64,000 nt of DNA from Nemertoderma westbladi. Taxonomy: Eukaryota > Animalia > Xenacoelomorpha. The notes under the pieces are model-generated. The model was not told the DNA's origin, searched no databases, and saw only the letters and a program-made list of their open reading frames with translations. This document shows positions 12,123 to 54,230 of this stretch, one piece after another. The stretch lies in assembly GCA_032718475.1 (NCBI GenBank), contig JAUCBJ010008930.1, forward strand, positions 1-64,000, written 5' to 3'. The stretch's first letter is position 1; every line of letters starts with the position of its first letter. The translations under genes and the position numbers were made by a program.

Positions 12123-12313
12123 CTTTTAAATATTTGTATGGATTTCTCCTTGTGAAAGCGAAGTATATTCCAGGAAGAACTATAAATGTATGTGTTATGA
12201 ATCCAGCAAAGACTGTCACCACATAGAAACTTAAATCATTGACTACAGCCTCAAGGTCATCAACTTCCAGTATCTTACCTGCTATCAGAAATACAATTCC
12301 AAATGGCATATAC
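12123..12313 (-). CDS. SLC1 transporter internal exon (end of TM5, TM6)
   Basis: YMPFGIVFLIAGKILEVDDL..YVVTVFAGFITHTFIVLPGIYFAFTRRNPYKYLK. Acceptor ttttcag ends at 12314, donor gt at 12122; 191 bp, phase 1 joins the 4969 exon. Confidence 0.92.
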
Positions 12314-12400
12314 CTGAAAATGAGAACAGTATTATTTATAATTATAGTTATATTGTGGTTGGTTACCAGCATAGCAGTTAGTACATATATTTACACCCAA

Positions 12401-14314
12401 TAAATTGGAGAGATACGCCTATTCCTACTATCGGAAGAGACGGTAACAATACCTGCAATATCCTACTGTAAAGTTTGTAAATCAAATCATAAATCCGACC
12501 TTCTCACCAAAACAGTAAACCCCAAGTAAGCGAATATATTGCAGTATCGATCTCTTTTAACCGGTGAGGCAGAAAACAGTCTACGAGCAGACAAACTTCG
12601 ATAAAACAAAATCCCGCGCAGCGAATCCTAAAATCAGGCTGACTCACTGACGGACTAAGGGGCTCGTATACTTTGCCGCGGTGTGATTTATATGGTTGGG
12701 CAAAGGGACGCTAGCTAGGTACAGAGGCAGATATTTGGAGATGTCTAACTAGCGAGCAAAGTGCAGTAAGGACGAAAGTTAATTTTATATATTTTGAGGT
12801 GTAAATAATTTCTAACGCGCGTGTGTTAATTCTGAACGGTCAAAAGCAGTTTTGCTCCTTCACATATATAATTACTGGGTACGGTGTGCATTTTACGAAT
12901 ATTCTAATTTGTAACTTGTAGGTCCAATACTCACGAATGGTAAGGTTCCTTCCCCTCTTGCGTATTTCCAGGACTCAAATTCAGGCATAAGGTTAATACT
13001 ACGCCCAGAATTCGGCAATTTCAGGTACCAGGTCCCTGATACTAAGAAGAGATGTGTTAGTTTACTACTGTAGGCGTACGGGTACTAATAGCTATCCTGG
13101 CTCCTATCTAGAATTTTAGTCACCCAGGTAGTCCGGGTAACTTCCTATTAGGGCGTTGGCGGGGACACGGTAGATGTTAGTATATCCCTGATAGCCTCAA
13201 TTTATTTGCGCCTAGCGTAAACTGCCCTACCGCCTGAACGGTACAATCCCAATTCAGGTGAAAACACAGCAACCCCCTAGCCTACAAGTTCTGATGTAAC
13301 GGACACCGTTGTACGGCAAATAGTCGCACACACACCTGTACTTAGCAAGAGTTAAGCGTACAGTTTGCTGCACCCTAACCAATGTGTATGCCTTGTACCG
13401 GTGTGCCTACGTCCTATCTGCGTACTAGTATCTGCTCTCTCTCCCTCTCCCCCGTAGGAATATGAAGGTCTACTGCGGTTTTTCCCTGAATCAAGACAGT
13501 ACAGTCCCTATGATGTAATTTTGGGCTCACAGCGTGTCACTACGTCTACCTTTGATCTTTTGGTCTTACACTTAGGTAGCAAGGATCGAACGCTGTCTAA
13601 CCTTTCAGGCGATGGGCGAATAACGCTAGATGGTATTGCGGGTTGTCTCTCGTCTACATTCCCGTGATGTTCCCGTTCATTGCTGTGGCCCGATCTCTAG
13701 CTGGCCATCCTGTCCCTGAGTTTGTTCACCGTAGTGAAACCATATTAAAACAGATAGAAAGGCTGAGAGATGTGACTAGTATTTCTGACTTTATTACAAA
13801 ACATATAATAACTATTATACAATAAACAATGTAATCTGAAATAAGACAGAAAGTGAATGATGGAAATTGATTGAATAACTAATGAACGAATCGCACCTTT
13901 ATATACTAAATTTGTGCCGCAATCAATCGAGAAAATTCTCGATTGTTCTATAGATTCTAACAAGGTTTTAAAGATAGCTATTGGTCCAGCTAATATATAA
14001 CTTGCACGACATTGGTTACAATCAAATAACTACAGCCTTATTGGTACAGACAAATGCAATTAATTTGTAGCGGTTAATTTAAATGAGTTGAAATTCTACA
14101 CAAAAAATAATTCGCACTTACTAGGATTTGAACTCGATACCTACTATACTTATAATTTCCAACGCTCTACCAACTGAGCTACTGAACCACTTGACCGATA
14201 GATGCATAATAGATAGAACCAATACGAATGAGAACTCAAAGCAATCTTTACAAAGTTAATTCGAATAAAATAAATTTTTGAAAATCCACGGCATTTAGGG
14301 AATATAATTCTATA
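12401..14314 (-). repeat. 3' LTR of the BEL/Pao element (1914 bp)
   Basis: Near-identical to 29317-31245 from taaattggagag to gggaatataattctata, with scattered substitutions and small indels. Preceded on the sense strand by the short purine-rich ggagcgg. Confidence 0.92.
14102..14188 (-). ncRNA. tRNA-derived Pol III-type unit inside the 3' LTR (not a functional tRNA)
   Basis: Sense GGTTCAGTAGCTCAGTTGGTAGAGC (A box, D-arm) ... GAGTTCAAATCC (B box) ... TTTTTT. Acceptor and T stems do not pair. Confidence 0.65.
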
Positions 14315-14339
14315 CCGCTCCATGAAAACAGGATATTAT

Positions 14340-15120
14340 CGTGCATAAAATATACGGTTTTCACCAATAATCAATCAAACTATAGAATACTTAGGGCGTA
14401 CTTACATATTTACAATTAAGTTTCAAACAATACTTCCTTTCTACGTAATGATTCGATACAAAATAATTACAAATTCAAACTTTACGTATTTAAGGCTTTA
14501 CTAAGTAAGTACAATATAAATCTAAATTAAATTCACCAATATAAATCTATTGCATCTCAATATTGCATAAATTCAAACAATTACAAATACAAATAAATGA
14601 AAACAATAAGAAAGGCTCGCGAGTCTTCCATCTACTATTGCATCTCAAATATTGCATAAATTCAAGTAATTACAAATACTTTCGTACCTAAATGTAGATT
14701 GCATAAGTTTGGAATAATTACAAATATGAGTCTTTCTGAGCACAAATTTTTCTGTCTATAAAACTTTCTCTTTAGGTACAAATACTGCTTATAAGATATA
14801 AATTGCATAATATTCGGAACAATACAAATTGCATAAGTTTGGAATAATATAAATTGTATAAGTTCGGAATAATTACAAATATAAAATATAAATTCTTACT
14901 AAATATAAATCTTACTAACTATAAGTCTTTACTTAAATATAAATATAAACTGCATAAGTTTAGAATAATATAAACCTTTGCATCTCAAATATGAAACATA
15001 AATCTTTCAAATATAAGTTCCTTCTAAATATAAACTTTCTAAATTTCATAAATTCGGAACAATACAAATTGCATAAGTTTTCTAAATTTAAAACATATAA
15101 TTCAAAATAAATCACAAATC
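14340..15120. repeat. AT-rich degenerate short repeats in the element 3' UTR
   Basis: Recurrent aaattgcataagtttggaataattacaaat / ttgcatctcaaatatt variants. Confidence 0.7.
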
Positions 15121-15197
15121 ATAAGAAAGGCTCACGAGTCTTCCGTCCACCCTTGCCCTCCCTTTTATCGCTTAGTTGATCGAGCCCTGCCGCGTCC

Positions 15198-18100
15198 TCA
15201 AAAACTGCGCACAGGTGACTTTGCTCGCGATATGGGACTAATGGGGCGAGTCACTGGTTTACTTGGGACGTTGAGAGACGGTGCAACTATTTCCTCGCAA
15301 ATTCGTCTATTTGGCATCCCAAAACCTCGACCAATTCCTCGTGACCGATCAGTCGTCGCTACAGTTGGTAGAACGTCTGGGAACGCGTGAGAAGCGGACG
15401 ACGCAGACCCAAGAGTAGCTTGCGCCCCCTGTTGATCAGCTGGTGTATGTCCCGATCCTCCTACCGGTTCTCTTGGAAGTGATACCGTATCCCGAGTAAC
15501 TCGAATAGTCGGCTCAACTCCCTTGCGTTCTTCTACATTAATAATTTTCTTCAATTGTTGGCCCACCTTCTGGACCCGTATGATCCTACCCTGCCCGTCC
15601 TCCCGAGGGTGACGTGCAGACGGCGCAACCGGAGTGGCTGATATATTCGTCGCCTCTAGGACCTCTTCTTCCTCGAATACGCTCGCTCGTATACGTTTAT
15701 GGTAAAACGCGGCTCGGTACGCCCATGCGACGGTTAACCAAGCTCCTTTATTCCGCTTTTCGGTTCGGAAACGATCAAATTCACCATACGTGATACGATT
15801 TACGACTTTCTGAAAATTCCACGTGTTCTTGTTATCCGGGTGAATCTGTAACAGATACTCGCGCACTACTCGGAATCCGCTGTCGTGGGGCAAAATATCG
15901 ACAACCTCGATAAGTTCGTCATATTGGGGCATAGCGGAGATATATCCTTCCGACATCATCGTCTGGGGATTTACCGCCCAAAATCCGAGATGCGCTCTCA
16001 TCGGAAACCGTCTTCTTTGTGCCGATACATGTTCGTCGGCTAAATCTTCCCACTCATCAAATAACTTCCTCACGAGTTTTACAGATTCGTGTTCATAAGG
16101 TATGTCTCTCAGTTGGCATTCAGATGCTCGATGTCCCTTTATATTGCAGTAAGTACATTGAGCCATAAATCTCCAGCAAGTATAAAAGGTATGAGACCCT
16201 TGATCCCCACACCATCCACAGATTAGCTGAGTCGTAGTAATGTGCTTTCCACTGCACTTTGCCATATGATGTCCAGCGACGCCACATTTACTACACATCG
16301 TATTAGCAGGGTACCACACTCGTTCGTATATAAGATCTCCAATCGGTCGAGCGCTTCCTCCCATACTATAATCGTAATCATCTGGGTCTATGGGTTGGTA
16401 GGTTTCTGAAGGTTGTATACAAACTATAGCATCTGTTGCTTCAAGTTGTCGAATCTCCGTCTGAGATTTCTTCGGGAGGTTCCTTTCTATCTCAAGAAGT
16501 TCCTCTAAAGGATCGTCGGCGATCGTAGTAGTTACGTTGAAATCATCACCGAGGTGACCGATAGGCGCGCGCGTCTGCCGTGATTCATCCATAATTTCCA
16601 CGATACGTTCTCCTTCATAGGGTAACAATGTAAACATAGATGGTCTTTCGATAAGAGATCCCGCACAGCGAAGATACACGTCTCGAAATATGCTAAATCC
16701 TGCTCGAGTAAAGGCATTACACTGAGCGTCGGAGTTGTAGAAGGGTTCAAGGAATCGTCTAAACACGTCGGTACGAATTCTCCCTTCCATGTAGAACGTA
16801 TGATCTTCTCCGAGACAAAGTGGATGTCTTTTGAGAGTCCGAGACACAATGTCGGCGATTAGGCAAACATTCACTGACGACTCTATCGCTAAATAATATT
16901 GTAAGACCGCTCTTGGAGGTGACGTAATAGCCCAATACACGCATCCTCTCCATTTAAGCTGTGATTCAAACTCACTCATATCTGGAGTATCACCTTCTCC
17001 ATAAGTTTCAATATACTTGTTTCTTTTACCTTCCTTATAATCCCAATTGAATAACAGGTAGGAAATGTATCCAGTTCCAGTCTTCTGAGTATTATACTCA
17101 CGAAAATATCCCTGTTCTATAGACCACAGAATAAGAGGTCGAGTGTCGACGTATGGTGTCGGTAGTCGGTCATCGCTGTCCGTCATGCCGGCGAAGTCGC
17201 TAATTAAATCCTCCCTTACTCCTGATCCAACCTTTACAACAGTTTTATCTAAAATCATGTTTCTTACCATCTTCGGTAACATTCTAGCGTCAATATTACA
17301 AGCTTGGTCCATCTTCTTTACTATATCGGTGATAAGATGGTGTCGCTTTGTATTCGCTGGAGGTATCGGCATTCGTTTGTCGCTCCTCTGTCTACTGAAA
17401 ACGTGCAGGACTCCGTCCGCCGCTCTAATCTGTATAGTCTTAGAAGTCAAACTCTGCTGATGACTGCCGCCCTCGTTATCGTAAAACATATAACCGTTTT
17501 CCTGAAACGATCTAAACGTCCTAGTCCATTCATCCAACAATTCTTCCGAAGGTTGCCAAATCTTCTCTATATCCTTATCCTCATCGAAACGAATAACCTT
17601 ACCTCGCCAATCTGCGGCAATATCTGTATCCGACTCGAAGGTTCCGATTCCAATCCATAAACGAATCGTCTTGGTTAGATATCCTTTCAGATTACTCGGA
17701 GCTATGTCGGCACCAGCTCTATCCAGTTCCTTAAAATCTTGGATATGAGGTGGAACGTTGTTCACGACCTTTTGAGTAATATGTCTACGCAAATCATATA
17801 TCTTACTCATATCGCTGAAAACAACTGCAGGAAGAAACTCCAAGTTTGAAATGATTTCTGGATGATCCACGATGGGTATTTCGTACGTCGTATCCTGTCG
17901 GACTGGTATACTAATAGGGAAATTGAGTGTCGTACTCAATGGTTTCGTAGCTGAAGTACTATACGGTTGCATTTCTCTTGGCCTCTCCGGGGATGCAATC
18001 TGTAGTCTCTGAATAACGTTTTGAGCGAAGTTTATGCTCTCGAAAACTTCCGGTGTCATCTCCTTAGCTGAAGTTTGATCGTGTGACGTCCAATGGCAAG

Positions 18101-18890
18101 GTAGGCTCGCGAGTCTTCCACCCCATTCTTCCATCTCACCTTTCTCGAAAGCCTTGTAGGCTCTGTATAGGCTAAGAGCTTCTTTCTTTTCGCGGGTTGA
18201 CTGATTCGCCTCGTCCAGCGTAAGTTCAAATACATCGGGTTCAACAACCTTAGGTGGGTAAATGACAGTTTCTCCCGCCTTTGGTCCGGTCATAGCAAAT
18301 GAATGATATGGATTCGATAAAGGATACCCTCCTTCCTGGTAGCGTAGTTGTTGATGATTCGAACACCTCGCCAATATCGGTTCGGGATTTTCCTTATTCA
18401 AACGCATCGGAATCGCATTTCGTTGTTCGCGCATACAAGAACCGCATTGATAATAAAGTTTATAAACTGAAAATGCTTCCTTGGTTTCTCTATCGTCCCC
18501 TCGAGTTCGTCTGTAAAGATGCATTCCATCGAATTCATCGCGTACCGCGGGCATAGGTTCGTGCGCCTTTAGGTATTGCATGGTATGATACAAACGACTA
18601 ATTTCAGTATCGGGGTCTTCGCTAATGTCTCCCGTATCACACAAAGCATCGTACGGGTAAAGTTCGTTGAAGGTTTGGCGCAAACTTTCGATTCTTTCGT
18701 TCAATGCGTTTTGCCTTCTCTTTAATACATTCGAGTCATATTTAGTTCTCGCGAGTTTCGCTGTACTTTCCGATAATTCTTTTATACCAAATATAGTGTA
18801 ATCCTTGGCTCCAAATCTTTCGAATGGCGCTGCTGCCTCCTCTTGGATATCATATCCCCATCTCGGCTCTCCTTGTATCCCTTTCTCCAT
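15198..18890 (-). CDS. Retrotransposon ORF2, 1230 aa: putative DEDDy (WRN/EXD/mut-7-like) 3'-5' exonuclease domain plus 3 CCHC zinc knuckles
   Basis: Uninterrupted ORF. ExoI-like FYDNE, then IQI; ExoII-like LPKMVRNMILDKTVVKVGSGVRED; YVD; GxGxISYLLF; ExoIII-like W..PP...LQYYLAIES (~16870-17500). Knuckles CSKCGVAGHHMAKC, CGWCGDQGSHTFYTC, CTYCNIKGHRASEC (~16115-16296). No signal peptide or TM segment seen. Confidence 0.75.
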   Translation of the reverse strand: MEKGIQGEPRWGYDIQEEAAAPFERFGAKDYTIFGIKELSESTAKLARTKYDSNVLKRRQNALNERIESLRQTFNELYPYDALCDTGDISEDPDTEISRLYHTMQYLKAHEPMPAVRDEFDGMHLYRRTRGDDRETKEAFSVYKLYYQCGSCMREQRNAIPMRLNKENPEPILARCSNHQQLRYQEGGYPLSNPYHSFAMTGPKAGETVIYPPKVVEPDVFELTLDEANQSTREKKEALSLYRAYKAFEKGEMEEWGGRLASLPCHWTSHDQTSAKEMTPEVFESINFAQNVIQRLQIASPERPREMQPYSTSATKPLSTTLNFPISIPVRQDTTYEIPIVDHPEIISNLEFLPAVVFSDMSKIYDLRRHITQKVVNNVPPHIQDFKELDRAGADIAPSNLKGYLTKTIRLWIGIGTFESDTDIAADWRGKVIRFDEDKDIEKIWQPSEELLDEWTRTFRSFQENGYMFYDNEGGSHQQSLTSKTIQIRAADGVLHVFSRQRSDKRMPIPPANTKRHHLITDIVKKMDQACNIDARMLPKMVRNMILDKTVVKVGSGVREDLISDFAGMTDSDDRLPTPYVDTRPLILWSIEQGYFREYNTQKTGTGYISYLLFNWDYKEGKRNKYIETYGEGDTPDMSEFESQLKWRGCVYWAITSPPRAVLQYYLAIESSVNVCLIADIVSRTLKRHPLCLGEDHTFYMEGRIRTDVFRRFLEPFYNSDAQCNAFTRAGFSIFRDVYLRCAGSLIERPSMFTLLPYEGERIVEIMDESRQTRAPIGHLGDDFNVTTTIADDPLEELLEIERNLPKKSQTEIRQLEATDAIVCIQPSETYQPIDPDDYDYSMGGSARPIGDLIYERVWYPANTMCSKCGVAGHHMAKCSGKHITTTQLICGWCGDQGSHTFYTCWRFMAQCTYCNIKGHRASECQLRDIPYEHESVKLVRKLFDEWEDLADEHVSAQRRRFPMRAHLGFWAVNPQTMMSEGYISAMPQYDELIEVVDILPHDSGFRVVREYLLQIHPDNKNTWNFQKVVNRITYGEFDRFRTEKRNKGAWLTVAWAYRAAFYHKRIRASVFEEEEVLEATNISATPVAPSARHPREDGQGRIIRVQKVGQQLKKIINVEERKGVEPTIRVTRDTVSLPREPVGGSGHTPADQQGAQATLGSASSASHAFPDVLPTVATTDRSRGIGRGFGMPNRRICEEIVAPSLNVPSKPVTRPISPISRAKSPVRSF

Positions 18891-18920
18891 AATTAGGGTG
18901 TAGTTACATAATCATTACTA

Positions 18921-18951
18921 CTAGAGGGAATACAACAGAGTTTGTAGTTAG
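18921..18951 (-). promoter_or_regulatory. Candidate 3' splice acceptor for a subgenomic ORF2 mRNA
   Basis: Sense CTAAC branch point (18951-18947), then ctctgttgtattccctctAG ending at 18921, 30 nt upstream of the ORF2 ATG. Confidence 0.55.
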
Positions 18952-19548
18952 TTGTGAGGAGACGTGAGAGTTTCGTCTGCCCTTTGGGCTCGACAACGCT
19001 CTAACCTCCTACCCATAGCCTAAGATCTAGGGTTTCTTTAATGACACGCTGCTTCTTATCTAAAATTTTTTGCCGAAGTAAAAACGAATTTGGGCTAAAC
19101 TGGCCGTGAGTCTAAAATACTCACCTTTTGATCCCAAACTATTATCAGAAAATAAGCAATCAAGAATTAGTAATAAATATAGGGGAGTCTATTTTGACGT
19201 AACTTATTGAAACAAGACTGTGTAAAATTTAATTAAAATTTTAAGAAAGGCTCGCAAGTCTTCCTCTCTTGTTTCTCTAATTTTAAGTTCCACCCGACTG
19301 TACCCTGGAATCTATTCACTGGAGAAAATTTTAAAAATTTTTCAAATCCAAATGGATTGTCTAAAATTTCGAAAATGTCTCAATATTGTGAGTTCCAAGT
19401 AGAATTCCATTTCTTATACCTACAAATCCCGCTCCTATGTGACACATAAGGGTACTACCCTCAATGTTCACATAATATGACAATGGAATTCTACCGCTGT
19501 CCTTACTACGGTGTACAGGTACGTGGAAATCTATTTGTAAACTCCTAA

Positions 19549-22500
19549 TTATTTACTAGTATTAGGTGGAGATTTGTAATCTCCAGACTCGTTACGAGTC
19601 TCTTCAAGGAGTACGAGACGTTGAGTCGGTCTGTCTACTGTACGACCGTCAATTGTTCGTACCGTCACAGTTCTTGTCACTCCATCCATAGATGGATGTG
19701 TGGCTAAAATGACACCTGTTATCCAGAAGCGTCTTTTTAGATTCACTTCTGCCAACAGCACGTGATCTCCCGGCTTTAATGCGTGGGTGTTATTATACCA
19801 GTTTGTTCTGGCAGAAATAGAGGGCAAATAATGGTTTTGCCATATTTCCCAGAATTTGTTAGCCAGTAGTTGCGTGATTTTCCACGCTTTTCTCCCGTAA
19901 CTATCGCTTTCCATTGGAGTGGAAATCGGCGTTAATGTCGTCGGTGCCTGCATAAGCAGGTGTGCCGGTGTTAAAGCAAACTGGGATTGTTTGTCATCGG
20001 GTACTAATACTATTGGTCTAGTATTTAGTATTGCCTCGATTTCAACAAACAATGTTGTCAGTTGGTCGTCTGTTAATATGTGGTTTACTGGAATGACCTT
20101 TGCCATGGCCGTTTTGATAGATCTAATCAATCTCTCCCAGACTCCGCCTCTCCAAGGACTATCTGGAGGATTAAACTTCCAAACAATCTTGTGAGGTTGC
20201 AGTTCGTTCGAGATTTGATCATGATCTAATTTCTTAAAGGCTCTAGCAATCTCATTCCGAGCACCAACGAAGTTTGTCCCTTGGTCTGAGTACAAGCATT
20301 TTACTAGTCCGCGTCTAGCGATAAATCGCCGCAGTGCTAGTATAAACGCGTTGGTGGAAAGATCCATCACACGTTCAATATGAACTGCCCTACTGGACAT
20401 ACATGTGAAAATCAGTCCCCAGCGTTTTACTAGTATACGTCCACGTTTCGTATGTATGGGACCAAAGCAATCAATTCCAGTCTCTGTAAAAGGTGGTCTG
20501 AATGCTTGAAGTCGTGCTTGTGGTAGTTCACTCATTTCTTGGGTACCTATTCTAGAATGTACCTTTTTACAAATAATACACGTACGTGTCACTGAACTTA
20601 ATGCTTTACTGGGTCTAATCAATACAAATCTAGTACGTAAGTAGGAAAGACAGTGGTGTCTTCCAGCGTGTTTCAGATGTAGATGTGCATCCAGTATCAT
20701 TGCACGTTGTAGTTCGTGATGTTGCGGTATTATTATTGGGTACCTAAAGTTTGTGTTAAAGTCAATGTTTTGAAGCCGAGATTTATGACAAATTAAGCCA
20801 TTATAAATTATCGGACTCCAACTCAGTATTGGTGACGACTTGATTGGTTGACCTTGATGTATAGATGTGAATTCGCGCGCGAAATATCTCAGTTGGTAAT
20901 GGCGAATTAATTTAATCTCACACCTGTCAATCTCAGCCAATGTAAGTCGACGTGTAAAGTCACGTTTGCCTTTAACGTATTGTACAAAACGTACAATCCA
21001 CGCTAATTTTCGGCAAGCGTTTGACCAAGAGTCTGTTAAGTTTACGATACGGTCGACGTAAGTATTTGTGACGTCATCAGGTAAGTCAATGGAGAACTTG
21101 GAAGGTTTTGAATTACTAGAAGGGCCCACGGGTCCGCCGGTAAGTATTCCCTTGTTGACTGTTGATCCGTCCGGGTCTACAAGTAATTTGTCCTTCTTTG
21201 TCCTCTTACCTTGATTGTTGGTACTTTGTAAGTCGATCGTTAATGGTGGTTTGAACTCTATGGGGTCAGCAGGTTTCGGTAAACTTATTTTTCTGCCGAC
21301 ATTAATCCCAGGTCTCACCGTAGGTTGTAAGTTCGGTATGTCTCTTGAGCGCAAAGTAACACCTGTATTTACATTAGCGTAGGTACTACCCACATCTGTA
21401 ATACATGAGGTTTCACCGTGCTTATGGTTGCTCAAGTGTGTCAAAATCGGTAGTTTGTCAATACAAGGCCGCTCCAATAGGGAAACTGCGGCTTTATCGT
21501 TAGTCAATACATTACTAGTGTCTAGTCGACTGTCTAGTAATGTGTCTGGCGATACGTCTGGTAACGTATCTAGTTGTTTGTCAATAGAAGGCCGCTCCAA
21601 TAGAGAAACTGTGGCTTTACTGTTTGTCAGTGTGTTACTAGCGTCTGGTGGAACATTTTGTGATATGTCTGGCAAAATGTCTGGTTGACTGTCTAGTAAC
21701 GTGTCTGGTTGACTGTCTGGTAACGTGTCTGGTTGACCGTCTGGCGATATGTCTGGTGTAGAAAGGCTCGCAAGTCTTCCTCTCTTGACCTTTGAAGTTA
21801 TATCCTTCCATTTCGCCTTCGGTTTTTTCTTGAGTTTTGTCGCCGTTGTCTTTTTCTTTGTCTTCCCCTTTTTTGGTTTCTTGATTTCGGCGTCCTTGGG
21901 AATGGTGTTGGACTTGTTGTCGTATAACGGAGGCCAATCTTGTGTCGATTTCTGCAAGAACTGGGGTCCGTGTTGCCAAAACTCTTTGTTCTCCGGTTTA
22001 CAGAATTCCTCAGGCATCATTCCTCGCGACGCAATATCAGCTGGGTTTTGTGGTCCGGGACAATGTCGCCAATCCTCTTTTATCGAATGGTCTAGAATCT
22101 CTGCGCGACGGTTAGCTACGAATGTCTTGAATTCGAGTGTGTCGTTGTTTATGTAAAATAAAACCAACGTCGCGTCAGTCCAATAAAATATCTGTAAACT
22201 CGACTGTAGTTCTGTCTGTATGAGGTTCACGATGGTGGTTGACAGGGTCGCGGCTTGTAGCTCGGCTCGTGGTGTCGTCATATACTTAGTAGGCATGGTC
22301 TTAGCCTTAGAAGTAATGAGCGAAACATCGAACTCGTCCGATTCTACTTGTCTGCGCAAATACGCTGCCACACCAAAACCGTTGTCACTGGCGTCAGAAA
22401 AACAGTGTAGTTCCAAGTTGTCAGGAAATGTACTCTGTAATGGAAAGTAAACCCTGGGTATGAAATAATCCTCTAGTGAAGATAATTCCGCCTCCCAGGT

Positions 22501-25500
22501 CTTCCATAAGTCCACTTGGTCTGATGAGATCGGCTCGTCCCACGTTAGTCCATCCTTCCATATACTGTGCATATAAATGCGAGCTTGCAGTATCACTGGA
22601 CTGATGAATCCTAACGGGTCGAACAATCGGCTCAACTTTGACAAGCATGATCTCTTGGTCAGTGTGTTTCCTTGACTGTCCAGTCTCACCTTCACTCGAA
22701 AGTTGTCTGTGTTTGGGTCCCAAAAGAGCCCCAACACCTTAGTCGTCGGTAGTGGTTCGAACTCTAGGTCTATGTCACCACCTCCACGCTCAGTAGTTCC
22801 GAATGAGTCAACTAATTCGGCACTGTTTGAGGCGAATTTGGTGAGGTTAAAACCTCCGCCCGCCAAGCAGTCCCGTAATTGATGTGCTACTGTTGTAGCA
22901 CGTTCTACTGTGTCGCAACTCTGTAATCCGTCATCAACGTAAAAGTCACGTTCTACAATTCTAATTATCTCTGGGTCATACAGATGTTTCTGATCTCTAG
23001 CGGCTTGCTTCAAGGCGTACATCGTACAATTCGGGCTGTCTCTGGCACCGAAAACGCGAACTTGCATTTGGTAAGTCGCTGGTGGTAGACTTAAGTCCCC
23101 TTCCGGATACCAGAGAAACCGCAAACTGTCTCTGTCTCGCTCTAACGCTTTTACTTGGTGAAACATCGCTTCAACGTCGCAAGTAAAGGCTACTTGACGC
23201 TGACGGAAGCGCATAATCACCCCCATAAGATAATTATTCATGTTCGGTCCATCCATCAACTCACTATTGAGGGACATTCCCTCAAACAGAGCCGCACAGT
23301 CATTGACTACGCGTACTTTATCTGGTTTGTCGGGATGTCTCACATAGTGATGTGGCAAGTAGTACGTCTGGTCTGTCACTCGCTCCGGGTTAGTCATTCG
23401 GATAGCGTATCCCTTTGTCAAATACGTCTCCATCTGAGTGTTATACTGCAGATGGGCTTTCTCGTCCTTTAATAGACGTTGTCGGATTGAGTGTAGACGT
23501 CTTAAAGCCAGTGGGTAGTTGTTTATAAGTTTAGGACTTTGGCTACGCCATAACATACCCACCTCGTAATGTCCGTCCTCCGTCTGTCGGATAGTATCCT
23601 CCATGATCTTTAGAGATTGTTTCTCCTGTTCCGACATACAAGGGTCGTAGCTACCAGGTTCAGCTGTATCTTGTTCTAACCACCTGATAGTCTTCTCCGT
23701 TAATTCTTTGTCCAAGGCGGCTTGTTCCAACTGATGAATTTTCAACGCGTCATCGTCGATATCGACGGGCACTGTTGAGGTTATTGGGGTAGGTAGACTC
23801 GCAAGCCTATCATCTGTCGTCGATGGAATCTCTAGCTGATTCGTCTTCCCCCCAATTTCTAAACTCACCTTGTGGGTTAGCTGCTCCTTGTGACTTATCA
23901 TACTAGTTACACGTCTGTCATGTTTTGTCGACTGTAGTGTAGTATGGTTCACGTCGTGTGAAAAGGAATGAATTGAGTTTGTAGTCAATAAACTACATGT
24001 ACTCTGTACGTCGTCTTCCTCGTCACTTACGTCTAGTGTGCGCACAGGCGCTCGAGTATACCACCCTATCGGCGTTCTGCAGGCGTATGCGTTTCCTGCT
24101 ACAACTGCCGATGGTCTGGTTTCCCACACCTGGTGTAGGTTGAATTGGTCCGTCCCGATCAGCATTGCTACCGATCTATAATTGACAGGACATTCGGGCA
24201 CACCAAGGTGTCTGAAATACTTACGGTCCTCCAAAGATTGTTCCGGCACTGGACCTAGTAGGTTACTAAAGTCCTTCGTGGCCGCAAAGGTTAGATCTCT
24301 AAAGGGCAACAAAGACCTCTCCCTCTCGCTGTGCTGCGATTTTGGAAGAAGAGAGTCTAAGTCCAACTTAACTCGTGTCACTGGTATTGCACGCTGTCCG
24401 TGCATACTACTTACTGTATAACTGACGTGCTTACCTTGTCTAAGATCTGTTACGACGTCAGCTATCTTTTCATCTACGTAACTGTGAGATGAGGCTGAGT
24501 CTAGAATCGCGTAAATCCTCTTACTCCCTTTTGTGCCAGTAACTTTAATCGGGATTACACTGAATCCCTTCAGTTGGTCAGTGGTCAGGAGCGCGATTGA
24601 CGGTTGTTCGTCTCCATTTGAATATTCGTCGTCTTCTGATTCTTCGTCCGACGATCCGGATTGTTCTGAAAAGCAATCCTCTATATGGGTCACGAAAGTC
24701 GGAGTCGTTTTCGATTCCCGTTTTCGGTAAGCCGCATCACATCTCGCTGCTGCTTCCGGGTGTTCCCTGGCGAAGCGTTTCGTCGGCGTGTGGCTGTCTG
24801 TGTGGAGCAGACCGTCGTGGTTGCGTCCACAGGATGGACAAGTGTCGGTATTTGGGCAATCCTTACGGACGTGTCCGTGTCGCGTACACCGCCAACAAGA
24901 GTCCAGTGGCCGTATCTGCAGCCGTCGTTCTTCTGAGTTCAACTCGCGAAATTGTCGACAACCCCGTAACTTGTGACCAATATACCGCTTACCTAAATGT
25001 TCGCAGTATTGGCAGCCGTTGAAGTCGGCGCTGAGTTGCTGTCTCGTCTGTTTCGTCCCAATGGGCGCAGATACTCTATTACCGTCTGAGAATTGTCGTG
25101 ATTCCGTCGGTGTGGCGTAAGTGGCCGTCTTTGTGGATGTTGTCTGGGGTTTTTGTCGGTTTGAAGAGGGCAATGTGATTCCTTCTGCCACGATGTGCTG
25201 GTCGGTATAGTTAGATCGAGTTTCTACTACCGCCTCCCTGGATATTAAAAGGTACACATCTTCTAATTTTAAGAATCCTCCCCGCTCCTCTCGCTGGTAT
25301 TCGACCTTCCTCCACTCCCGACGAAGTCGATGGTGGAGTCGTCCTATGATTTTTAATAGGACTGTAGGGGTATTTCCGTAATCAAGTTGTCCAATTGATC
25401 TTAAGGTAGTGATAGCGTTCTTGATTTCGTCAGCTAGTTTTAGTAAGTCGATGGGTTTAGTGATAGCCCCTCCCTTACAGAGTTCTTCTATTACTGACCT

Positions 25501-28473
25501 GGCCATACTCACTGTACCTCCGTATATCGAAGTCAAACGATCGTACGCTAGTTCGAAAGCGTCTGGTACACCGACGAAAGTCTCCGCCAAACGTTTAGGT
25601 TCTCCTGACAACGTTTGGAGCAGGTAATTGAACTTCTCCCGTGATGTAAAGGCGCACACGGCGATCTGGGATTCGATATAGTCTACGAAGGTATGCCAGT
25701 GTTTTGAGCTACCGGAGAACTTCGGTGGTTGTTGTACCGGCAATCCCTGTCTGGCTGCGAATTTCGCTATCTCCTCGGCAACGTTCAGAGTTTCGCGTCC
25801 TTGGTTGGTAGTCTGGTTGATGTTCTCCCTTCTTGGCGCTTTTCCCTGATACGATGTGGGGTTTGAAGGTACTGGTCTTTGTGGTCCCTTCGGGTGTCTA
25901 TTGTGTTCGAATTCGGAATTTCTCGAACTGTCGGTGTAACCTTCCTCCAGACGTTCCTCAATCCGGGCCAACTTGTTGACAATGTCGGCGAACTGTTGCG
26001 CACCGATCGCGCCCGCTGGTGGTAACGCCTTCTGTGTCGGTGTATTCTGTGGAGGATTGTCTGCAAAGGAGTTGTCTGAACGCTCGCGTTTATATTCATC
26101 GGCCGCCCCCGTTCTAAATACCTCGCGTATCGGGTAATCCGATTCGCTCGAAGTACTACTATCATCTGGATATGGTGGTCGACGTGCTCGCGTCCGTTGC
26201 GTCGTTCGAATTCTAACGGCTCGTTTCGGAACATCGTCCACTGATCTCCGTTGTTCGGTAGGCTCACAAGTCTTCCTCGAAGTCGTAGATTGCGATGTAA
26301 ACTGGTTGAACGGTCGCGTCTCCACTGTTCTCCGTTGTTCGGTAGGCTCACAAGTCTTCCTCGAAGTCGTAGATTGCGATGTAAACTGGTTGAACGGTCG
26401 CGTCTCCACTGTTCTCCGTTGTTCGGTAGGCTCACAAGTCTTCCTCGAAGTCGTAGATTGCGATGTAAACTGGTTGAACGGTCGCGTCTCCACTGTTCTC
26501 CGTTGTTCGGTAGGCTCACAAGTCTTCCTCGAAGTCGTAGATTGCGATGTAAACTGGTTGAACGGTCGCGTCTCCACTGTTCTCCGTTGTTCGGTAGGCT
26601 CACAAGTCTTCCTCGAAGTCGTAGATTGCGATGTAAACTGAACCGGTGGGCGAATGACAGCATTTGAAACAACTGGCCTTGTAGGTCGAAACGTCATTGG
26701 GTAAGCGTAATGTGTAACGGGTTTAGGCGTCAAAGGTGGACTCACCTGTTTTGTCGTCAGTAGCGCAGGTCCGGTCAATAAACTACTACGATCTGTAATC
26801 GGTGGGTTACTTACCTTGACTCTCGGAATAGGCGACGACGTTGCTCTTGGCGGTATAAACTCGTTCGGAATAACAAACCTGTGTTCCGTCGCACCATGGA
26901 TAGGAGAAATATCACTACTACCCGCAATCGAAACAGGTTCCTTAGTCGTAACCGGTGCAAACATATGAGTTACCTGTGGGAATCGTTGACACACGTCTTT
27001 TACTAATTGTCGTTCCCGTCCGGGTGCTCCTACGCTTCCTTCCTTCTTCCGTTCCTGAATTTGGCGATGTCTTACCTCTAACTGGTCCAAATCATGTCCG
27101 TCGCGAGATCTCATCGATCGATCGCGGGCTAGAAGATCCAGATTTTCCTTAGTTTCGGCTAATTCTCTCGCCCTCTTCTCAAGTTCGAAACGAAGTTTAA
27201 CTTCCTTTTCTCGTTGTTCCGTTTGTTGTTGTTGCGCCTCGAACTCTGCTTGTCGTATCGCTTGTTGGGCTTTTATTTGCCGTGTCTTCATCTCGACTCT
27301 GGCTTCCAAAACTACTCTTTGTCGCTCTAACTCTGCCGCAGCCGTTTGTCGCTCTAACTCTGCCGCAGCCGTTTGTCGCTCTAACTCAGCCGCTGCAGCT
27401 GCCGCTGCCGTTTGTCGCTCTAACTCGGCTGTTGCCGTTCGTTGCGCTAACTCGGCCGTTGCCGCTTGTTGGGCAATGTCCAACTCTAACCTTTCCATTT
27501 CGGCCGCTTCGAGTTCGGCTTGTTCCTGCAGATGAGAGATTCTCGCTACATTCGCAACACGTATTTTCTCTTCCTCTACTGCTGTTTGTATCATTAGAAG
27601 TTGAGCTTGTTCTTCTATCTCGTGTTGCTGTCTGTAGAACTGCTGCTGTTGTCGAGCAACTTCTGACGTGACTATACTTCCTTCGCAGATTTCGCTACGA
27701 ATACTTACCAATGATTGATTTAGTATTCCCGGTGCCGATTCGATTTGTGCGAATGAAGTTTCCCTCGTGTATTCCGGCACGGTTTCCAAATCGCCGACGT
27801 CTTCGCCGCACATGCGTAAGTGGTCCGTCAGATGTTTCAATTGTCCATCCAGTCGGTACAATTCCTGTTCTTCCTCGGGTTGTAATAATTCGTCCGAAAC
27901 TGACTCACCTAACAACTGGTCCGCTTGTTCCTGTTGTATCTGTCTAATCGTCGACTTAAACTGAATCAGTTTCTCTCTAGTGATCATTAGTTTCTCGAGG
28001 ATTCTAAGTTGAGTATCCATGTCCTGTCTCTGTCTAGCTAGATCTTGTAGGCCAACTAGATTATCTACGGACTTATATACTTTACTCTGTACTCTAACCT
28101 GGAGGGTGTAGAACTCGAATCGAGACATCGGAGCGGTCAACCCGTCTAATATGCGTTGGCCTTCTCCAATACTCCTGGTTATATGCGCCATGTATCCACC
28201 GACGCTTCTAACCACACTTTCTGTGCTTCCTGCTGAACTTACCAATTCCGTTTCCCTATATCTAGGTTGCGGAACAGTTAGAAAGTCCTCGGTCCTGCCG
28301 TCGCCTCGTACTACGGCATCCGGTACTCCCGTTGGATGTACTGGTGACGCACACGGTGTAGGTTCGGTAGGCTCGCGAGTCTTCCCCTGTGGTTCTTCCG
28401 CTGCTGACTTATCCGCGTCACATGAGTCATAGTCGGTTTGTGTATTCTTCGTATAGTCTTGTTTGTCACTCAT
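19549..28473 (-). CDS. BEL/Pao Gag-Pol polyprotein, 2974 aa
   Basis: DUF1759-type gag (PKFSGSSKHWHTF..EKFNYLLQTLSGEP); three Cys/His knuckles; protease ILDSAS; RT (YLPHH, RVVND, DVEAMFHQV, FGARDSP, FYVDD); RNase H (FSDAS, PRAELQAA, WTDA, NPADIASRG); integrase (H..H..CIIC, GIDCFGP, SDQGTNF, WERLIRSIK). Confidence 0.96.
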   Translation of the reverse strand: MSDKQDYTKNTQTDYDSCDADKSAAEEPQGKTREPTEPTPCASPVHPTGVPDAVVRGDGRTEDFLTVPQPRYRETELVSSAGSTESVVRSVGGYMAHITRSIGEGQRILDGLTAPMSRFEFYTLQVRVQSKVYKSVDNLVGLQDLARQRQDMDTQLRILEKLMITREKLIQFKSTIRQIQQEQADQLLGESVSDELLQPEEEQELYRLDGQLKHLTDHLRMCGEDVGDLETVPEYTRETSFAQIESAPGILNQSLVSIRSEICEGSIVTSEVARQQQQFYRQQHEIEEQAQLLMIQTAVEEEKIRVANVARISHLQEQAELEAAEMERLELDIAQQAATAELAQRTATAELERQTAAAAAAAELERQTAAAELERQTAAAELERQRVVLEARVEMKTRQIKAQQAIRQAEFEAQQQQTEQREKEVKLRFELEKRARELAETKENLDLLARDRSMRSRDGHDLDQLEVRHRQIQERKKEGSVGAPGRERQLVKDVCQRFPQVTHMFAPVTTKEPVSIAGSSDISPIHGATEHRFVIPNEFIPPRATSSPIPRVKVSNPPITDRSSLLTGPALLTTKQVSPPLTPKPVTHYAYPMTFRPTRPVVSNAVIRPPVQFTSQSTTSRKTCEPTEQRRTVETRPFNQFTSQSTTSRKTCEPTEQRRTVETRPFNQFTSQSTTSRKTCEPTEQRRTVETRPFNQFTSQSTTSRKTCEPTEQRRTVETRPFNQFTSQSTTSRKTCEPTEQRRSVDDVPKRAVRIRTTQRTRARRPPYPDDSSTSSESDYPIREVFRTGAADEYKRERSDNSFADNPPQNTPTQKALPPAGAIGAQQFADIVNKLARIEERLEEGYTDSSRNSEFEHNRHPKGPQRPVPSNPTSYQGKAPRRENINQTTNQGRETLNVAEEIAKFAARQGLPVQQPPKFSGSSKHWHTFVDYIESQIAVCAFTSREKFNYLLQTLSGEPKRLAETFVGVPDAFELAYDRLTSIYGGTVSMARSVIEELCKGGAITKPIDLLKLADEIKNAITTLRSIGQLDYGNTPTVLLKIIGRLHHRLRREWRKVEYQREERGGFLKLEDVYLLISREAVVETRSNYTDQHIVAEGITLPSSNRQKPQTTSTKTATYATPTESRQFSDGNRVSAPIGTKQTRQQLSADFNGCQYCEHLGKRYIGHKLRGCRQFRELNSEERRLQIRPLDSCWRCTRHGHVRKDCPNTDTCPSCGRNHDGLLHTDSHTPTKRFAREHPEAAARCDAAYRKRESKTTPTFVTHIEDCFSEQSGSSDEESEDDEYSNGDEQPSIALLTTDQLKGFSVIPIKVTGTKGSKRIYAILDSASSHSYVDEKIADVVTDLRQGKHVSYTVSSMHGQRAIPVTRVKLDLDSLLPKSQHSERERSLLPFRDLTFAATKDFSNLLGPVPEQSLEDRKYFRHLGVPECPVNYRSVAMLIGTDQFNLHQVWETRPSAVVAGNAYACRTPIGWYTRAPVRTLDVSDEEDDVQSTCSLLTTNSIHSFSHDVNHTTLQSTKHDRRVTSMISHKEQLTHKVSLEIGGKTNQLEIPSTTDDRLASLPTPITSTVPVDIDDDALKIHQLEQAALDKELTEKTIRWLEQDTAEPGSYDPCMSEQEKQSLKIMEDTIRQTEDGHYEVGMLWRSQSPKLINNYPLALRRLHSIRQRLLKDEKAHLQYNTQMETYLTKGYAIRMTNPERVTDQTYYLPHHYVRHPDKPDKVRVVNDCAALFEGMSLNSELMDGPNMNNYLMGVIMRFRQRQVAFTCDVEAMFHQVKALERDRDSLRFLWYPEGDLSLPPATYQMQVRVFGARDSPNCTMYALKQAARDQKHLYDPEIIRIVERDFYVDDGLQSCDTVERATTVAHQLRDCLAGGGFNLTKFASNSAELVDSFGTTERGGGDIDLEFEPLPTTKVLGLFWDPNTDNFRVKVRLDSQGNTLTKRSCLSKLSRLFDPLGFISPVILQARIYMHSIWKDGLTWDEPISSDQVDLWKTWEAELSSLEDYFIPRVYFPLQSTFPDNLELHCFSDASDNGFGVAAYLRRQVESDEFDVSLITSKAKTMPTKYMTTPRAELQAATLSTTIVNLIQTELQSSLQIFYWTDATLVLFYINNDTLEFKTFVANRRAEILDHSIKEDWRHCPGPQNPADIASRGMMPEEFCKPENKEFWQHGPQFLQKSTQDWPPLYDNKSNTIPKDAEIKKPKKGKTKKKTTATKLKKKPKAKWKDITSKVKRGRLASLSTPDISPDGQPDTLPDSQPDTLLDSQPDILPDISQNVPPDASNTLTNSKATVSLLERPSIDKQLDTLPDVSPDTLLDSRLDTSNVLTNDKAAVSLLERPCIDKLPILTHLSNHKHGETSCITDVGSTYANVNTGVTLRSRDIPNLQPTVRPGINVGRKISLPKPADPIEFKPPLTIDLQSTNNQGKRTKKDKLLVDPDGSTVNKGILTGGPVGPSSNSKPSKFSIDLPDDVTNTYVDRIVNLTDSWSNACRKLAWIVRFVQYVKGKRDFTRRLTLAEIDRCEIKLIRHYQLRYFAREFTSIHQGQPIKSSPILSWSPIIYNGLICHKSRLQNIDFNTNFRYPIIIPQHHELQRAMILDAHLHLKHAGRHHCLSYLRTRFVLIRPSKALSSVTRTCIICKKVHSRIGTQEMSELPQARLQAFRPPFTETGIDCFGPIHTKRGRILVKRWGLIFTCMSSRAVHIERVMDLSTNAFILALRRFIARRGLVKCLYSDQGTNFVGARNEIARAFKKLDHDQISNELQPHKIVWKFNPPDSPWRGGVWERLIRSIKTAMAKVIPVNHILTDDQLTTLFVEIEAILNTRPIVLVPDDKQSQFALTPAHLLMQAPTTLTPISTPMESDSYGRKAWKITQLLANKFWEIWQNHYLPSISARTNWYNNTHALKPGDHVLLAEVNLKRRFWITGVILATHPSMDGVTRTVTVRTIDGRTVDRPTQRLVLLEETRNESGDYKSPPNTSK
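26238..26641. repeat. 84-bp coding tandem repeat x~4.8 in gag (FTSQSTTSRKTCEPTEQRRTVETRPFNQ)
   Basis: Essentially identical units with period 84 (aggctcacaagtcttcc at 26260, 26344, 26428, 26512, 26596). Confidence 0.97.
27318..27465. repeat. 27-bp coding repeat (AAAELERQT) in the gag coiled-coil
   Basis: gtttgtcgctctaactctgccgcagcc repeated with variants. Confidence 0.85.
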
Positions 28474-28558
28474 TTCGGTAGTTGTAAGTCAAGTGAAGTG
28501 AGTGTAAAAGTATCGAGTTTACCGTATTTGTATAAAACGGTACTAATTACAGTCATAT

Positions 28559-28678
28559 AAAATTAGCCTACCGGCCGATTTTATAGCAGATGGATAAAAT
28601 TAGCCTAAACGGCCAATTTTACAGCAAATAAATGTCACGGAATAAGTATATAATAAAATTAGCCTAGCGGCCAATTTT
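28559..28678 (-). promoter_or_regulatory. Three repeated stem-loops in the 5' leader just upstream of the gag ATG
   Basis: Sense AAAAT(T/C)GGCC-loop(GCTA/GTTTA/GGTA)-GGCTAATTTT at 28655-28678, 28596-28620, 28559-28582. Confidence 0.7.
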
Positions 28679-30827
28679 ACAACAAATAAATCGGATAACG
28701 ATATGCGTTATCAAAAGGTAAATTAAATACAATAATACGGACTAATTCAGCAATGAACAAAGAAATCATACGGAATGCATAAATACTTGAGACAGTGGAA
28801 CCCACAATAATTTTAACTAATACGGTAATGCCTAACTTATTTATGCAACTTTTCGAACTCACCCACTCCAATAATTCTCCAGAAAAACAGATTCCCAGAT
28901 ACAAACCGGACGTGAACCTTTCCGTTTTTAACGTTGCGGACGAAACGCGATTTTCCCAACCAAAGTTGTTGGGTTATCTATCTCCCAAACTTGCTAAACA
29001 CGGTCTTGCTCCCGTTACAGTCTAGAAATGAGTTCTGAATCCTGAAAAACAAAAGAGTTAGGTTTTACTTTACGAAATTTTGTACCGGTACAATATGGTA
29101 TTTAAACCCTTTTTAAACACCGGTATTCAATTCCAAAATATTTTACACGCGGTTCAAATCAAATTTTATTTCAAAAAATTAGCACTTAGCTAATCAAATA
29201 TAAATTTTTACCTCAAAATACAAAATTTTCAAATAACTTTAGTCCTACCGAACCGTAGTTCAGTAAAACATATTCCTACTAAATTAGGAAATATGTTAAA
29301 ATAATCATATTCCTACTAAATTGGAGAGATACGCCTATTCCTACTAATTGGAAGAGACGGTAACAATACCTGCAATATCCTACTGTAAAGTTTGTAAATC
29401 AAATCATAAATCCGACCTTCTCACCAAAACAGTAAACCCCAAGTAAGCGAATATATTGCAGTATCGATCTCTTTTAACCGGTGAGGCAGAAAACAGTCTA
29501 CGAGCAGACAAACTTCGATAAAACAAAATCCCGCGCAGCGAATCCTAAAATCAGGCTGACTCACTGACGGACTAAGGGGCTCGTATACTTTGCCGCGGTG
29601 TGATTTATATGGTTGGGCAAAGGGACGCTAGCTAGGTACAGAGCAGATTTGGAGATGTCTAACTAGCGGGCAAAGCACAGTACGGACTAAGTTAATTTTA
29701 TATATTTTGAGGTGTAAATAATTTCTAACGCGCGTGTGTTAATTCTGAACGGTCAAAAGCAGTTTTGCTCCTTCACATATATAATTACTGGGTACGGTGT
29801 GCATTTTACGAATATTCTAATTTGTAACTTGTAGGTCCAATACTCACGAATGGTAAGGTTCCTTCCCCTCTTGCGTATTTCCAGGACTCAAATTCAGGCA
29901 TAAGGTTAATACTACGCCCAGAATTCGGCAATTTTAGGTACCAGGTCCCTGATACTAAGAAGAGATGTGTTAGTTTACTACTGTAGGCGTACGGGTACTA
30001 ATAGCTATCCTGGCTCCTATCTAGAATTTTAGTCACCCAGGTAGTCCGGGTAACTTCCTATTAGGGCGTTGGCGGGGACACGGTAGATGTTAGTATATCC
30101 CTGATAGCCTCAATTTATTTGCGCCTAGCGTAAACTGCCCTACCGCCTGAATGGTACAATCCCAATTCAGGTGAAAACACAGCAACCCCCTAGCCTACAA
30201 GTTCTGATGTAATGGACACCGTTGTACGGCAAATAGTCGCACACACACCTGTACTTAGCAAGAGTTAAGCGTACAGTTTGCTGCACCCTAACCAATGTGT
30301 ATGCCTTGTACTGGTGTGCCTACGTCCTATCTGCGTACTAGTATCTGCTCTCTCTCCCTCTCCCCCGTAGGAATATGAAGGTCTACTGCGGTTTTTCCCT
30401 GAATCAAGACAGTACAGTCCCTATGATGTAATTTTGGGCTCACAGCGTGTCACTACGTCTACCTTTGATCTTTTGGTCTTACACTTAGGTAGCAAGGATC
30501 GAACGCTGTCTAACCTTTCAGGCGATGGGCGAATAACGCTAGATGGTATTGCGGGTTGTCTCTCGTCTACATTCCCGTGATGTTCCCGTTCATTGCTGTG
30601 GCCCGATCTCTAGCTGGCCATCCTGTCCCTGAGTTTGTTCACCGTAGTGAAACCATATTAAAACAGATAGAAAGGCTGAGAGATGTGACTAGTATTTCTG
30701 ACTTTATTACAAAACATATAATAACTATTATACAATAAACAATGTAATCTGAAATAAGACAGAAAGTGAATGATGGAAATTGATTGAATGTGATTGAGAT
30801 TGAGATAACTAATGAACGAATCGCACC

Positions 30828-30975
30828 TTTATATACTAAATTTGTGCTGCAATCAATCGAGAAAATTCTCGATTGTTCTATGGGTTCTAACAAGGTTTTA
30901 AAGATAGCTTATTGGTCCAGCTAATATATAACTTGCACTACATTGGTTACAATCAAATAACTACAGCCTTATTGG
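30828..30975 (-). promoter_or_regulatory. LTR Pol II promoter: three CCAAT boxes ~30 bp apart, then TATATAAA
   Basis: Plus-strand attgg at 30971, 30942, 30911; tttatata at 30828-30835; sense AATAAA at 30708-30703. Same layout in the 3' LTR. Confidence 0.6.
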
Positions 30976-31032
30976 TACAGACAAATGCAATTAATTTGTA
31001 GCGGTTAATTTAAATGAGTTGAAATTCTGCAC

Positions 31033-31119
31033 AAAAAATAATTCGCACTTACTAGGATTCGAACTCGATACCTACTACACATATAATTTCCAACGCTCTA
31101 CCAACTGAGCTACTGAACC
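31033..31119 (-). ncRNA. tRNA-derived Pol III-type unit inside the 5' LTR
   Basis: Sense TAGCTCAGTTGGTAGAGC (A box), GTTCGAATCC (consensus B box), T6 terminator. Confidence 0.65.
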
Positions 31120-53835: not shown

Positions 53836-53839
53836 TTAA

Positions 53840-54226: not shown

Positions 54227-54230
54227 TTAA

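Follow-up and report, generated by a model that had tools for sequence, protein, structure and literature searches.

The window analysed here (64,000 nucleotides of Nemertoderma westbladi DNA, contig JAUCBJ010008930.1, positions 1 to 64,000) contains a BEL/Pao LTR retrotransposon of 18.8 kb (Table 1). Its LTRs, of 1.9 kb each, are 97.6% identical over 1933 nt, and the element is young. One 2979-aa ORF holds Pao-type pol and gag domains (PF05380 with E 2e-41, PF18701, PF03564 and an integrase zinc domain), and the Cys/His knuckle motifs of its Gag form the cluster of three that is a BEL/Pao trait. The RT/RNase H region of ORF1 is 38-44% identical to the best 120 of 991 matches, the nearest proteins have the same domains, and the named sources among these 120 are molluscs, echinoderms, a nemertean, a coral, a tunicate and a barnacle; the pol search found no relative in viral contigs. 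TG..CA ends, a tRNA primer site and an exact target duplication are typical of LTR elements without defining a clade. This element ends in TA..TA or TA..TT and not in TG..CA, its 5-bp flanks agree at 4/5 positions, and no TGG primer-binding site is evident. A short unit resembling CAATT(T)AGTAGGAAT occurs about three times across the U5/leader junction (29240-29350), together with a small inverted repeat, and the priming mode may be unusual. By eye, a tRNA-like A-box and B-box can be recognised at the start of the LTR (31050-31119) and in its 3' LTR twin (minus strand); ARAGORN called no tRNA, and the boxes could possibly represent a captured tRNA or SINE piece, or a Pol III promoter. Tandem repeats with units of 123, 24, 27 and 66 nt, at 21453-21757 and 27306-27491, add length to gag and to the RNase H-integrase linker, and ORF1 is about 1000 aa longer than most relatives among the matches listed.

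The second gene, ORF2, follows pol and carries three more knuckle motifs, with a Pfam zf-CCHC match (E 0.0037) that lies below the cut-off. No homologue of ORF2 was found at near or shorter lengths, and it has no match among PDB sequences. In the ESM Atlas it lies nearest to PF01612+PF00098 clusters, which combine a 3'-5' exonuclease domain with CCHC knuckles (0.83 and 0.78, scores <0.9 that are rated as leads), with 10 and 9 of the ten best matches in one family or clan. Pfam found nothing in the putative exonuclease segment, and two single-sequence structure predictions reached pLDDT 30 and 32; a 3'-5' exonuclease-like fold for ORF2 is a lead only. A contig of run X1 (1/4 runs) contains a joint between 18920 and 28863 with ends CT..AC (GT..AG on the element strand), a GG/GTGAGT donor, a branch-like CTAAC and a pyrimidine tract ahead of the AG. 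With its textbook donor and acceptor, the joint suggests either a spliced message for ORF2 or a DNA copy made from such a message, and ORF2 seems likely to be expressed from spliced RNA, as env is in retroviruses. One X1 contig has a loose end at 29043, by a pyrimidine tract and an AG; this end is similar to the LTR sequence next to a GT near 30514, and it hints at a second intron at about 29042-30514 (minus strand), whose removal would leave some transcripts without the U5/primer region.

Table 1. Features of the retrotransposon and copies of the 20-nt hairpin (window coordinates; loops and peptides read on the element strand)
Feature	Coordinates	Strand	Remarks
BEL/Pao LTR retrotransposon, 18.8 kb	12401..31245	-	LTR pair; Pfam Peptidase_A17, DUF1759, DUF5641
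5' LTR	29317..31245	-	no motif copy
3' LTR	12401..14314	-	no motif copy
ORF1, gag-pol in one frame, 2979 aa	19549..28488	-	three Cys/His knuckle motifs, aa 1159-1233
ORF2, 1237 aa	15198..18911	-	three knuckle motifs, aa 873-932
Intron (likely)	18921..28862	-	GT..AG; removes gag-pol, joins ORF2 to leader
Hairpin copy 1	28366..28385	-	CGCG loop; gag N-terminus, KTREP
Hairpin copies 2-6	26257..26612	-	UGUG loop; one per 84-bp gag tandem unit, KTCEP; one independent locus
Hairpin copies 2-6, starts	26612, 26528, 26444, 26360, 26276	-	
Hairpin copy 7	23792..23811	-	UGCG loop, G.U replacing A.C; protease-RT linker, RLASL
Hairpin copy 8	21761..21780	-	UGCG loop; RNase H-integrase linker, RLASL
Hairpin copy 9 (new, weaker)	21119..21138	-	CGUG loop; A-U swapped to G-C and U-A to C-G; GPVGP
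Hairpin copy 10	19245..19264	-	UGCG loop; non-coding spacer, ORF1/ORF2
Hairpin copy 11	18100..18119	-	CGCG loop; ORF2, RLASL
Hairpin copy 12 (new)	16560..16579	-	CGCG loop; U-A swapped to G-C; ORF2, QTRAP
Hairpin copy 13	15125..15144	-	CGUG loop; 3' UTR
Hairpin copy 14	14610..14629	-	CGCG loop; 3' UTR

The original prediction had described a 17-nt hairpin motif dispersed 11-12 times through this element. An exact scan of the window recovered all 11 of its plus-strand matches to AGGCTC(G/A)C(G/A)AGTCTTCC at the positions given for them, and no exact match on the opposite (minus) strand. The twelfth variant, at 23795-23808, is also present as described, with G.U replacing A.C and the loop kept. 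The dispersal thus stood, while the length and the count had to be revised. The motif is 20 nt long, GGAAGACTYGYGAGCCTWYC on the element sense strand, and all 20 positions are matched by each of the 11 exact copies; because 5/11 of these are units of one 84-bp tandem array in gag, they mark seven independent loci. A combined scan for identity and structure added two further copies, at 16560-16579 and, weaker, at 21119-21138. This makes 14 copies at 10 independent loci, every one between the LTRs. With up to three mismatches allowed, 16 matches were found against 0.31 expected (100 shuffles, largest 2), and after masking of the 20-mer every other approximate 14-mer recurs at four internal-region loci at most, the one at four being AT-rich. 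The loci follow one another about every 1.5 kb between the LTRs, with a spacing more even than random (P 0.04 for the largest gap and 0.017 for the CV, both post hoc). Seven of the ten are coding, in the two phases already recognised (KTREP/KTCEP and RLASL), and all seven lie in linker-like sequence (83rd-98th percentile); the other three are non-coding.

As had been claimed, no copy occurs in either LTR (12401-14314, 29317-31245) or in the 45 kb of host flank in the window, the flank against which enrichment in the element is judged. The window also holds a neighbouring BEL/Pao-like element at 40915-50573 (plus strand), with 530-bp LTRs that are 99.4% alike, a gag (DUF1759), a protease-like ORF and a 3-kb internal duplication. 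The ORFs scanned in it contain no RT domain, and neither a motif copy nor an ORF2-like gene was seen in this one truncated control. A covariance model gave 27-33 bits for the 14 copies, which is circular because it was built from them, and found no extra site above 12.9 bits in the whole window. A borderline hairpin at 20645-20664 (CCAC loop, 12.9 bits, E 1.3) was left uncounted, as were six candidate hairpins with four changes, since their pairs are broken. Rfam had nothing at the motif and a single match elsewhere in 12000-31600 (E 3.9). Viral contigs (2 matches) and metagenome contigs (26) gave single motif matches only; none of these 28 loci resembles the element or contains the motif twice, and we regard them as chance. 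In public contigs the element belongs to a multi-copy family with many variants, some contigs being only about 81-86% alike, and 0/40 listed difference rows (of 803) fall within a motif copy, where 0.75 would be expected, a difference too small to be informative. At 14601-14769 a back-step of 169 nt is seen in contigs of runs X1 and X4, and some family members likely carry a tandem duplication spanning copy 14.

The original prediction confined the variation to the tetraloop, which is contradicted by the stems of the two new copies. All three stem-variant copies swap pairs: U8-A13 becomes G-C in copy 12, A4-U17 becomes G-C and U8-A13 becomes C-G in copy 9, and A6.C15 becomes G.U in copy 7, A.C and G.U having the same wobble geometry. 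No lone pair-breaking change was found in the core stem of any copy. Pair 8-13 is therefore seen as U-A, G-C and C-G, while G5-C16, C7-G14 and both loop G's are invariant. Position 6-15 is a wobble at 10/10 loci, A.C at nine of them, and never Watson-Crick. A reading of the loop as GNRA (Y-GYGA-G) was dropped, copies 9 and 12 being without the A. A strict descriptor (pair, G-C, wobble, C-G, pair, YGYG loop) has 14 matches on the sense strand, all between the LTRs, and 0 in 300 Markov simulations of 15 kb, with the proviso that it was tuned on these copies; its four plus-strand matches are the CGCG copies read in reverse. Because of this tuning, the denominator of candidate stems was also counted. 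Sense-strand 14-mers that have a YGYG loop and a stem one or three letters away from the core do not occur. Two have two stem changes and both keep the pairs (chance 13/405 each, 3.2%, or leniently 34/405, 8.4%), and seven have four changes, one of them pair-keeping (chance 66/17010, 0.4% each). By these counts copies 7 and 12 are firmly true copies and copy 9 probably is one. The covariation score was 0.250 against 0.158 shuffled (9/500 shuffles; 10 loci, 8 distinct rows), and two other measures were weaker (32/500 shuffles for one, and 72/500 for pairs with a change on both sides). These controls lean favourable and should be read as such, because the structure was drawn from these paralogous copies of one element.

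Could the coding copies simply follow from the peptides? Synonymous recoding that kept the peptide and the codon usage of the ORF retained the descriptor in 0.15-1.2% of draws at each of the seven coding loci, so that the motif is not forced by the protein. RLASL does occur three times, and a peptide-level cause was nevertheless rejected in view of the other phase, the non-coding copies and this rare retention. Recent internal duplication with long flanking identity had been named as what would speak against a signal, and no long shared flanks were found in any of the 45 pairs. Exact identity past the 20-mer covers 0-7 letters on the 5' side and 0-4 on the 3' side, the most being 7 nt 5' for copies 8 and 10, and on the 3' side the 3-4 nt that the non-coding copies share with one another, as do copies 1 and 2. 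The 40-nt flanks are 10-42% alike, rising to 55-60% on the 3' side among the three AT-rich non-coding copies. Flanks at background identity indicate that the copies are old enough to have lost their shared context while the core stayed fixed.

These data also bear on whether the array is a neutral by-product, a quasi-palindrome spread by template switching whose pair swaps come from palindrome correction. The few extra letters shared within subgroups of copies would fit, as would the growth in number through tandem duplication (the 84-bp array and the 169-nt back-step over copy 14) and the position of all coding copies in tolerant linkers. However, single pair-breaking changes would then be expected and none was found, palindrome correction should erase an A.C mismatch that persists at 9/10 loci, and the 5' flanks are at background identity (0.10-0.42) next to a fixed core. 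We consider this origin very unlikely.

A palindromic DNA site decaying at CpG had been offered as the alternative to an RNA signal, and it is disfavoured here. On the sense strand the element shows neither CpG depletion nor strand bias (observed/expected 1.20 for CpG, 0.88 for TG and 0.98 for CA), and CACG, CGCA and CACA are as common in it as TGCG, CGTG and TGTG. Loop changes from CGCG are nevertheless one-sided on that strand, 7 being C-to-T and 0 G-to-A (P about 0.016 in a two-sided comparison that treats them as independent, 0.03 with two related copies merged), which shows a strand-specific rule compatible with either strand. A duplex-DNA site recognised by a protein dimer, whether VANC-like in anti-silencing or an insulator factor, its loops varying by CpG decay, would make sense of the near-perfect 20-bp dyad with its central CGCG, and of copy 7, which can also be read, and reads best, as an inverted copy (18/20 on the plus strand). 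There is precedent in the VANC/VANDAL anti-silencing system, where, as described in the consulted part of PMC5735166, a transposon protein binds short DNA motifs repeated in non-coding regions of its own DNA transposon; the likeness extends to an extra protein and to motifs that multiply by tandem duplication. Those motifs are non-coding, read as duplex and free of pairing constraint in that account, whereas here 7/10 loci are coding, pairing is kept and the variation is strand-biased. A reader of duplex DNA needs no symmetric double swaps, and the LTR promoter is without a copy. A DNA site is therefore just as improbable to us as a neutral origin, or slightly more so.

Given the pair-keeping variants, and given that peptide, long duplication and CpG decay fail to explain the array, the motif is likely a selected self-pairing hairpin. 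The proposal of a multi-site cis signal holds as far as structure and multiplicity are concerned (pair swaps in 3/3 variants, no long shared flanks, no forcing by peptide), and less so in taking the sense strand as the working strand. The predicted sense-RNA fold, GGAAG-A-CU[YGYG]AG-C-CU(U/A), keeps its pairing, but is marginally stable and stronger on the antisense. Its energy is -0.4 to -2.0 kcal/mol at the seven exact-type loci, it is the minimum-energy fold in 3/8 contexts of 51 nt (z-scores -1.4 to +0.9, none significant), and in 140-nt context the upper two pairs reach a probability of 0.5 at 2/11 copies tested. The folding program credits no protonated A.C pair. The antisense hairpin, in which A.C becomes G.U, is the minimum-energy fold in 7/8 contexts. 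We nonetheless infer that the sense RNA is the working strand, because the ORFs and splice sites are there and because knuckles would read the fixed loop guanines. The more stable antisense fold would suit a hairpin acting on minus-strand cDNA, and a host protein (a transport, export or editing factor) might also be the reader, as host Egalitarian reads retrotransposon stem-loops such as ILS (PMC13186709, in the part consulted). Rfam has no match for it, however, the hairpin is far shorter than the multi-helix signals described there, and 45 kb of flanking DNA are without a copy; of all the explanations considered, a host reader or cDNA role seems to us the most improbable.

A further reading is pairing between RNAs. 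The 8-nt self-complementary cores could act as stickers, kissing or forming duplexes that dimerise or compact the genome. Predicted self-duplexes reach -17 to -24 kcal/mol at 9/10 loci against -0.4 to -4.2 for the hairpins, and since G-C and G.U pairs would let every YGYG loop pair with every other, the loop variation may be what wobble tolerates. In this the core resembles dimer initiation sites, and Ty1 PAL1/PAL2 in particular; Ty1 dimerisation is driven by such palindromes, which, like the retroviral ones, are self-complementary and confined to the 5' region according to the consulted text of PMC6844567, unlike the dispersed copies here. Against pairing as the function, copies 9 and 12 pair with the seven exact-type loci less strongly, by about 3-10 kcal/mol, yet neither the wobble nor the invariant letters of the stem are lost in them, as would better suit a protein reader. 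The five-copy UGUG locus self-pairs weakly (-8.2 kcal/mol), and pairing of each site with its own twin would require no sequence common to the loci. Because the variants lose pairing with the common copies yet keep the invariant letters, pure RNA-RNA pairing explains them less well, and we hold it to be improbable.

The fixed stem and loop letters, one free pair that needs only pairing and an obligatory wobble argue for a protein that reads one hairpin, and such docking, whoever the reader, is probable. The hairpin would fold on the element RNA as a G-C pair, an A.C or G.U wobble, a C-G pair, any Watson-Crick pair and a YGYG loop. A protein would read the two loop guanines and the wobble and stabilise a fold too weak alone. 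The element encodes two clusters of knuckles, in Gag and in ORF2, and the reader would be one of its own zinc-knuckle proteins, most likely the ORF2 product, apparently translated from spliced RNA. By coating the 17-kb RNA, this protein would label it as the element's own, to be exported and packaged. New copies probably originate when short patches are copied in the course of reverse transcription, and through tandem duplication, surviving only in tolerant linkers and untranslated DNA. To this reading as a whole, a selected hairpin docked by the element's knuckle protein for export and packaging, we give a probability of roughly 40%. The assignment to ORF2 is tentative and falls somewhat short of an even chance; it is narrowly favoured because one element combines an unusual RNA-binding gene with an unusually specific site in many copies, while the array is missing from the gag-bearing element nearby. 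Nothing in the present evidence separates ORF2 from Gag as the reader.

Were the nucleocapsid knuckles of Gag to read the hairpin, the copies would serve as dispersed packaging signals from which assembly starts at many points on an oversized genomic RNA. The even spacing across the entire internal region fits such signals, three knuckle motifs are present in Gag, and the unspliced RNA contains 14 copies against four in the spliced ORF2 RNA. Dispersed stem-loop signals are a recognised mechanism in RNA viruses. In MS2 and HBV, as described in the accessible part of PMC6281560, many small and individually weak stem-loops share a recognition motif, and the present array likewise has multiple stem-loops with a shared motif along the genome. 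In those viruses the signals vary around a short motif, whereas here seven loci share 15 fixed letters, the copies are near-identical 14-20-mers with an obligatory wobble, the carrier is an LTR retrotransposon and capsid binding is putative. A Gag-derived precedent exists in Rous sarcoma virus, where an NC zinc knuckle binds the UGCG tetraloop of muPsi SL-C (according to PMC8833184, seen in part). Here too the element encodes CCHC knuckles and 3/10 loci have a UGCG loop. But the RSV signal is a single one in the leader, while the ten loci here include none in the leader and also have CGCG, CGUG and UGUG loops, mostly closed by U-A, unlike the canonical UNCG loop. The leader, where retroviral and Ty1 signals sit (PMC6844567, in part), is thus without a copy, the first one lying inside gag; and whereas the retroviral Psi/dimer site is absent from spliced RNA, 4/14 copies lie past the splice acceptor and are still held by the spliced ORF2 RNA. 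We regard Gag as an unlikely reader, although less so than the explanations weighed above.

For ORF2 as the reader, the closest comparisons are Cer1 CERV and HIV Rev/RRE. In Cer1 CERV an accessory protein from spliced RNA sits on the genomic RNA and exports it (PMC10309623), and here, as in both systems, an accessory protein with Cys-rich RNA-binding motifs apparently comes from spliced RNA and the genomic RNA retains its splice sites. The consulted text of that report does not describe the RNA target, and the Cer1 protein is not known to be related to ORF2 in sequence. Rev binds one structured region, whereas these sites are scattered and occur in spliced RNA as well. The Rev response element is confined to the intron, while the intron here holds 10/14 copies and 6/10 loci for 66% of the internal length, in proportion and without enrichment. 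By analogy, the array would act in the manner of dispersed packaging signals, or of a Rev response element broken up into many sites, without the placement that defines Psi or the RRE. An extra ORF after pol is also known from bdelloid LTR retrotransposons of the Juno and Vesta lineages, whose ORF3 is a DEDDy exonuclease with its catalytic residues kept (PMC5408684, in part). ORF2 may carry a 3'-5' exonuclease fold too; it differs in its 1237 aa, its three knuckles and the putative nature of the fold, and the accessible text of PMC5408684 mentions no hairpin array. In Egalitarian an exonuclease-homology domain without catalytic residues binds RNA stems (PMC13186709, same part), which would be a precedent for ORF2 should its putative fold be correct. 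It is conceivable that the element has its own lock and key, a captured exonuclease-fold knuckle protein from spliced RNA and sequence-specific wobble hairpins about 1.5 kb apart in gag, pol, ORF2 and the UTRs, which together coat the 17-kb RNA, tell it from host RNA and take it past nuclear retention or small-RNA silencing, as a distributed Rev/RRE-like system of independent origin; we hold this extended form to be rather unlikely.

To our knowledge, the way in which LTR retrotransposons select, export and package their own RNA is understood for few elements, with the mapped signals near the 5' end. Large LTR elements are already known, and the consulted part of PMC6431247 mentions no hairpin array in them. 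In the literature covered, which was mostly open-access, we found no description of such an array in BEL/Pao or other LTR retrotransposons. A near-identical 20-nt hairpin present in two frames is a defined, synthesisable target, and two candidate readers are encoded by the same element; short RNAs and isolated domains are therefore enough to address the question directly. Should very large elements rely on dispersed arrays to manage an RNA of 17 kb, then the dispersed-signal model developed for RNA viruses would apply to retrotransposons as well.

The flanking DNA also contains repeats. At 52651-55065, 32485-32967 and 63413-64000 there are arrays whose units of 141-154 nt run in both orientations, a tandem repeat of 142 nt and a satellite of 17 nt. 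In translations read by eye, the stretches 1982-5028, 6875-9846, 37140-39608 and 58078-63387 appear to contain amino-acid-transporter-like exons and broken LINE-like elements.
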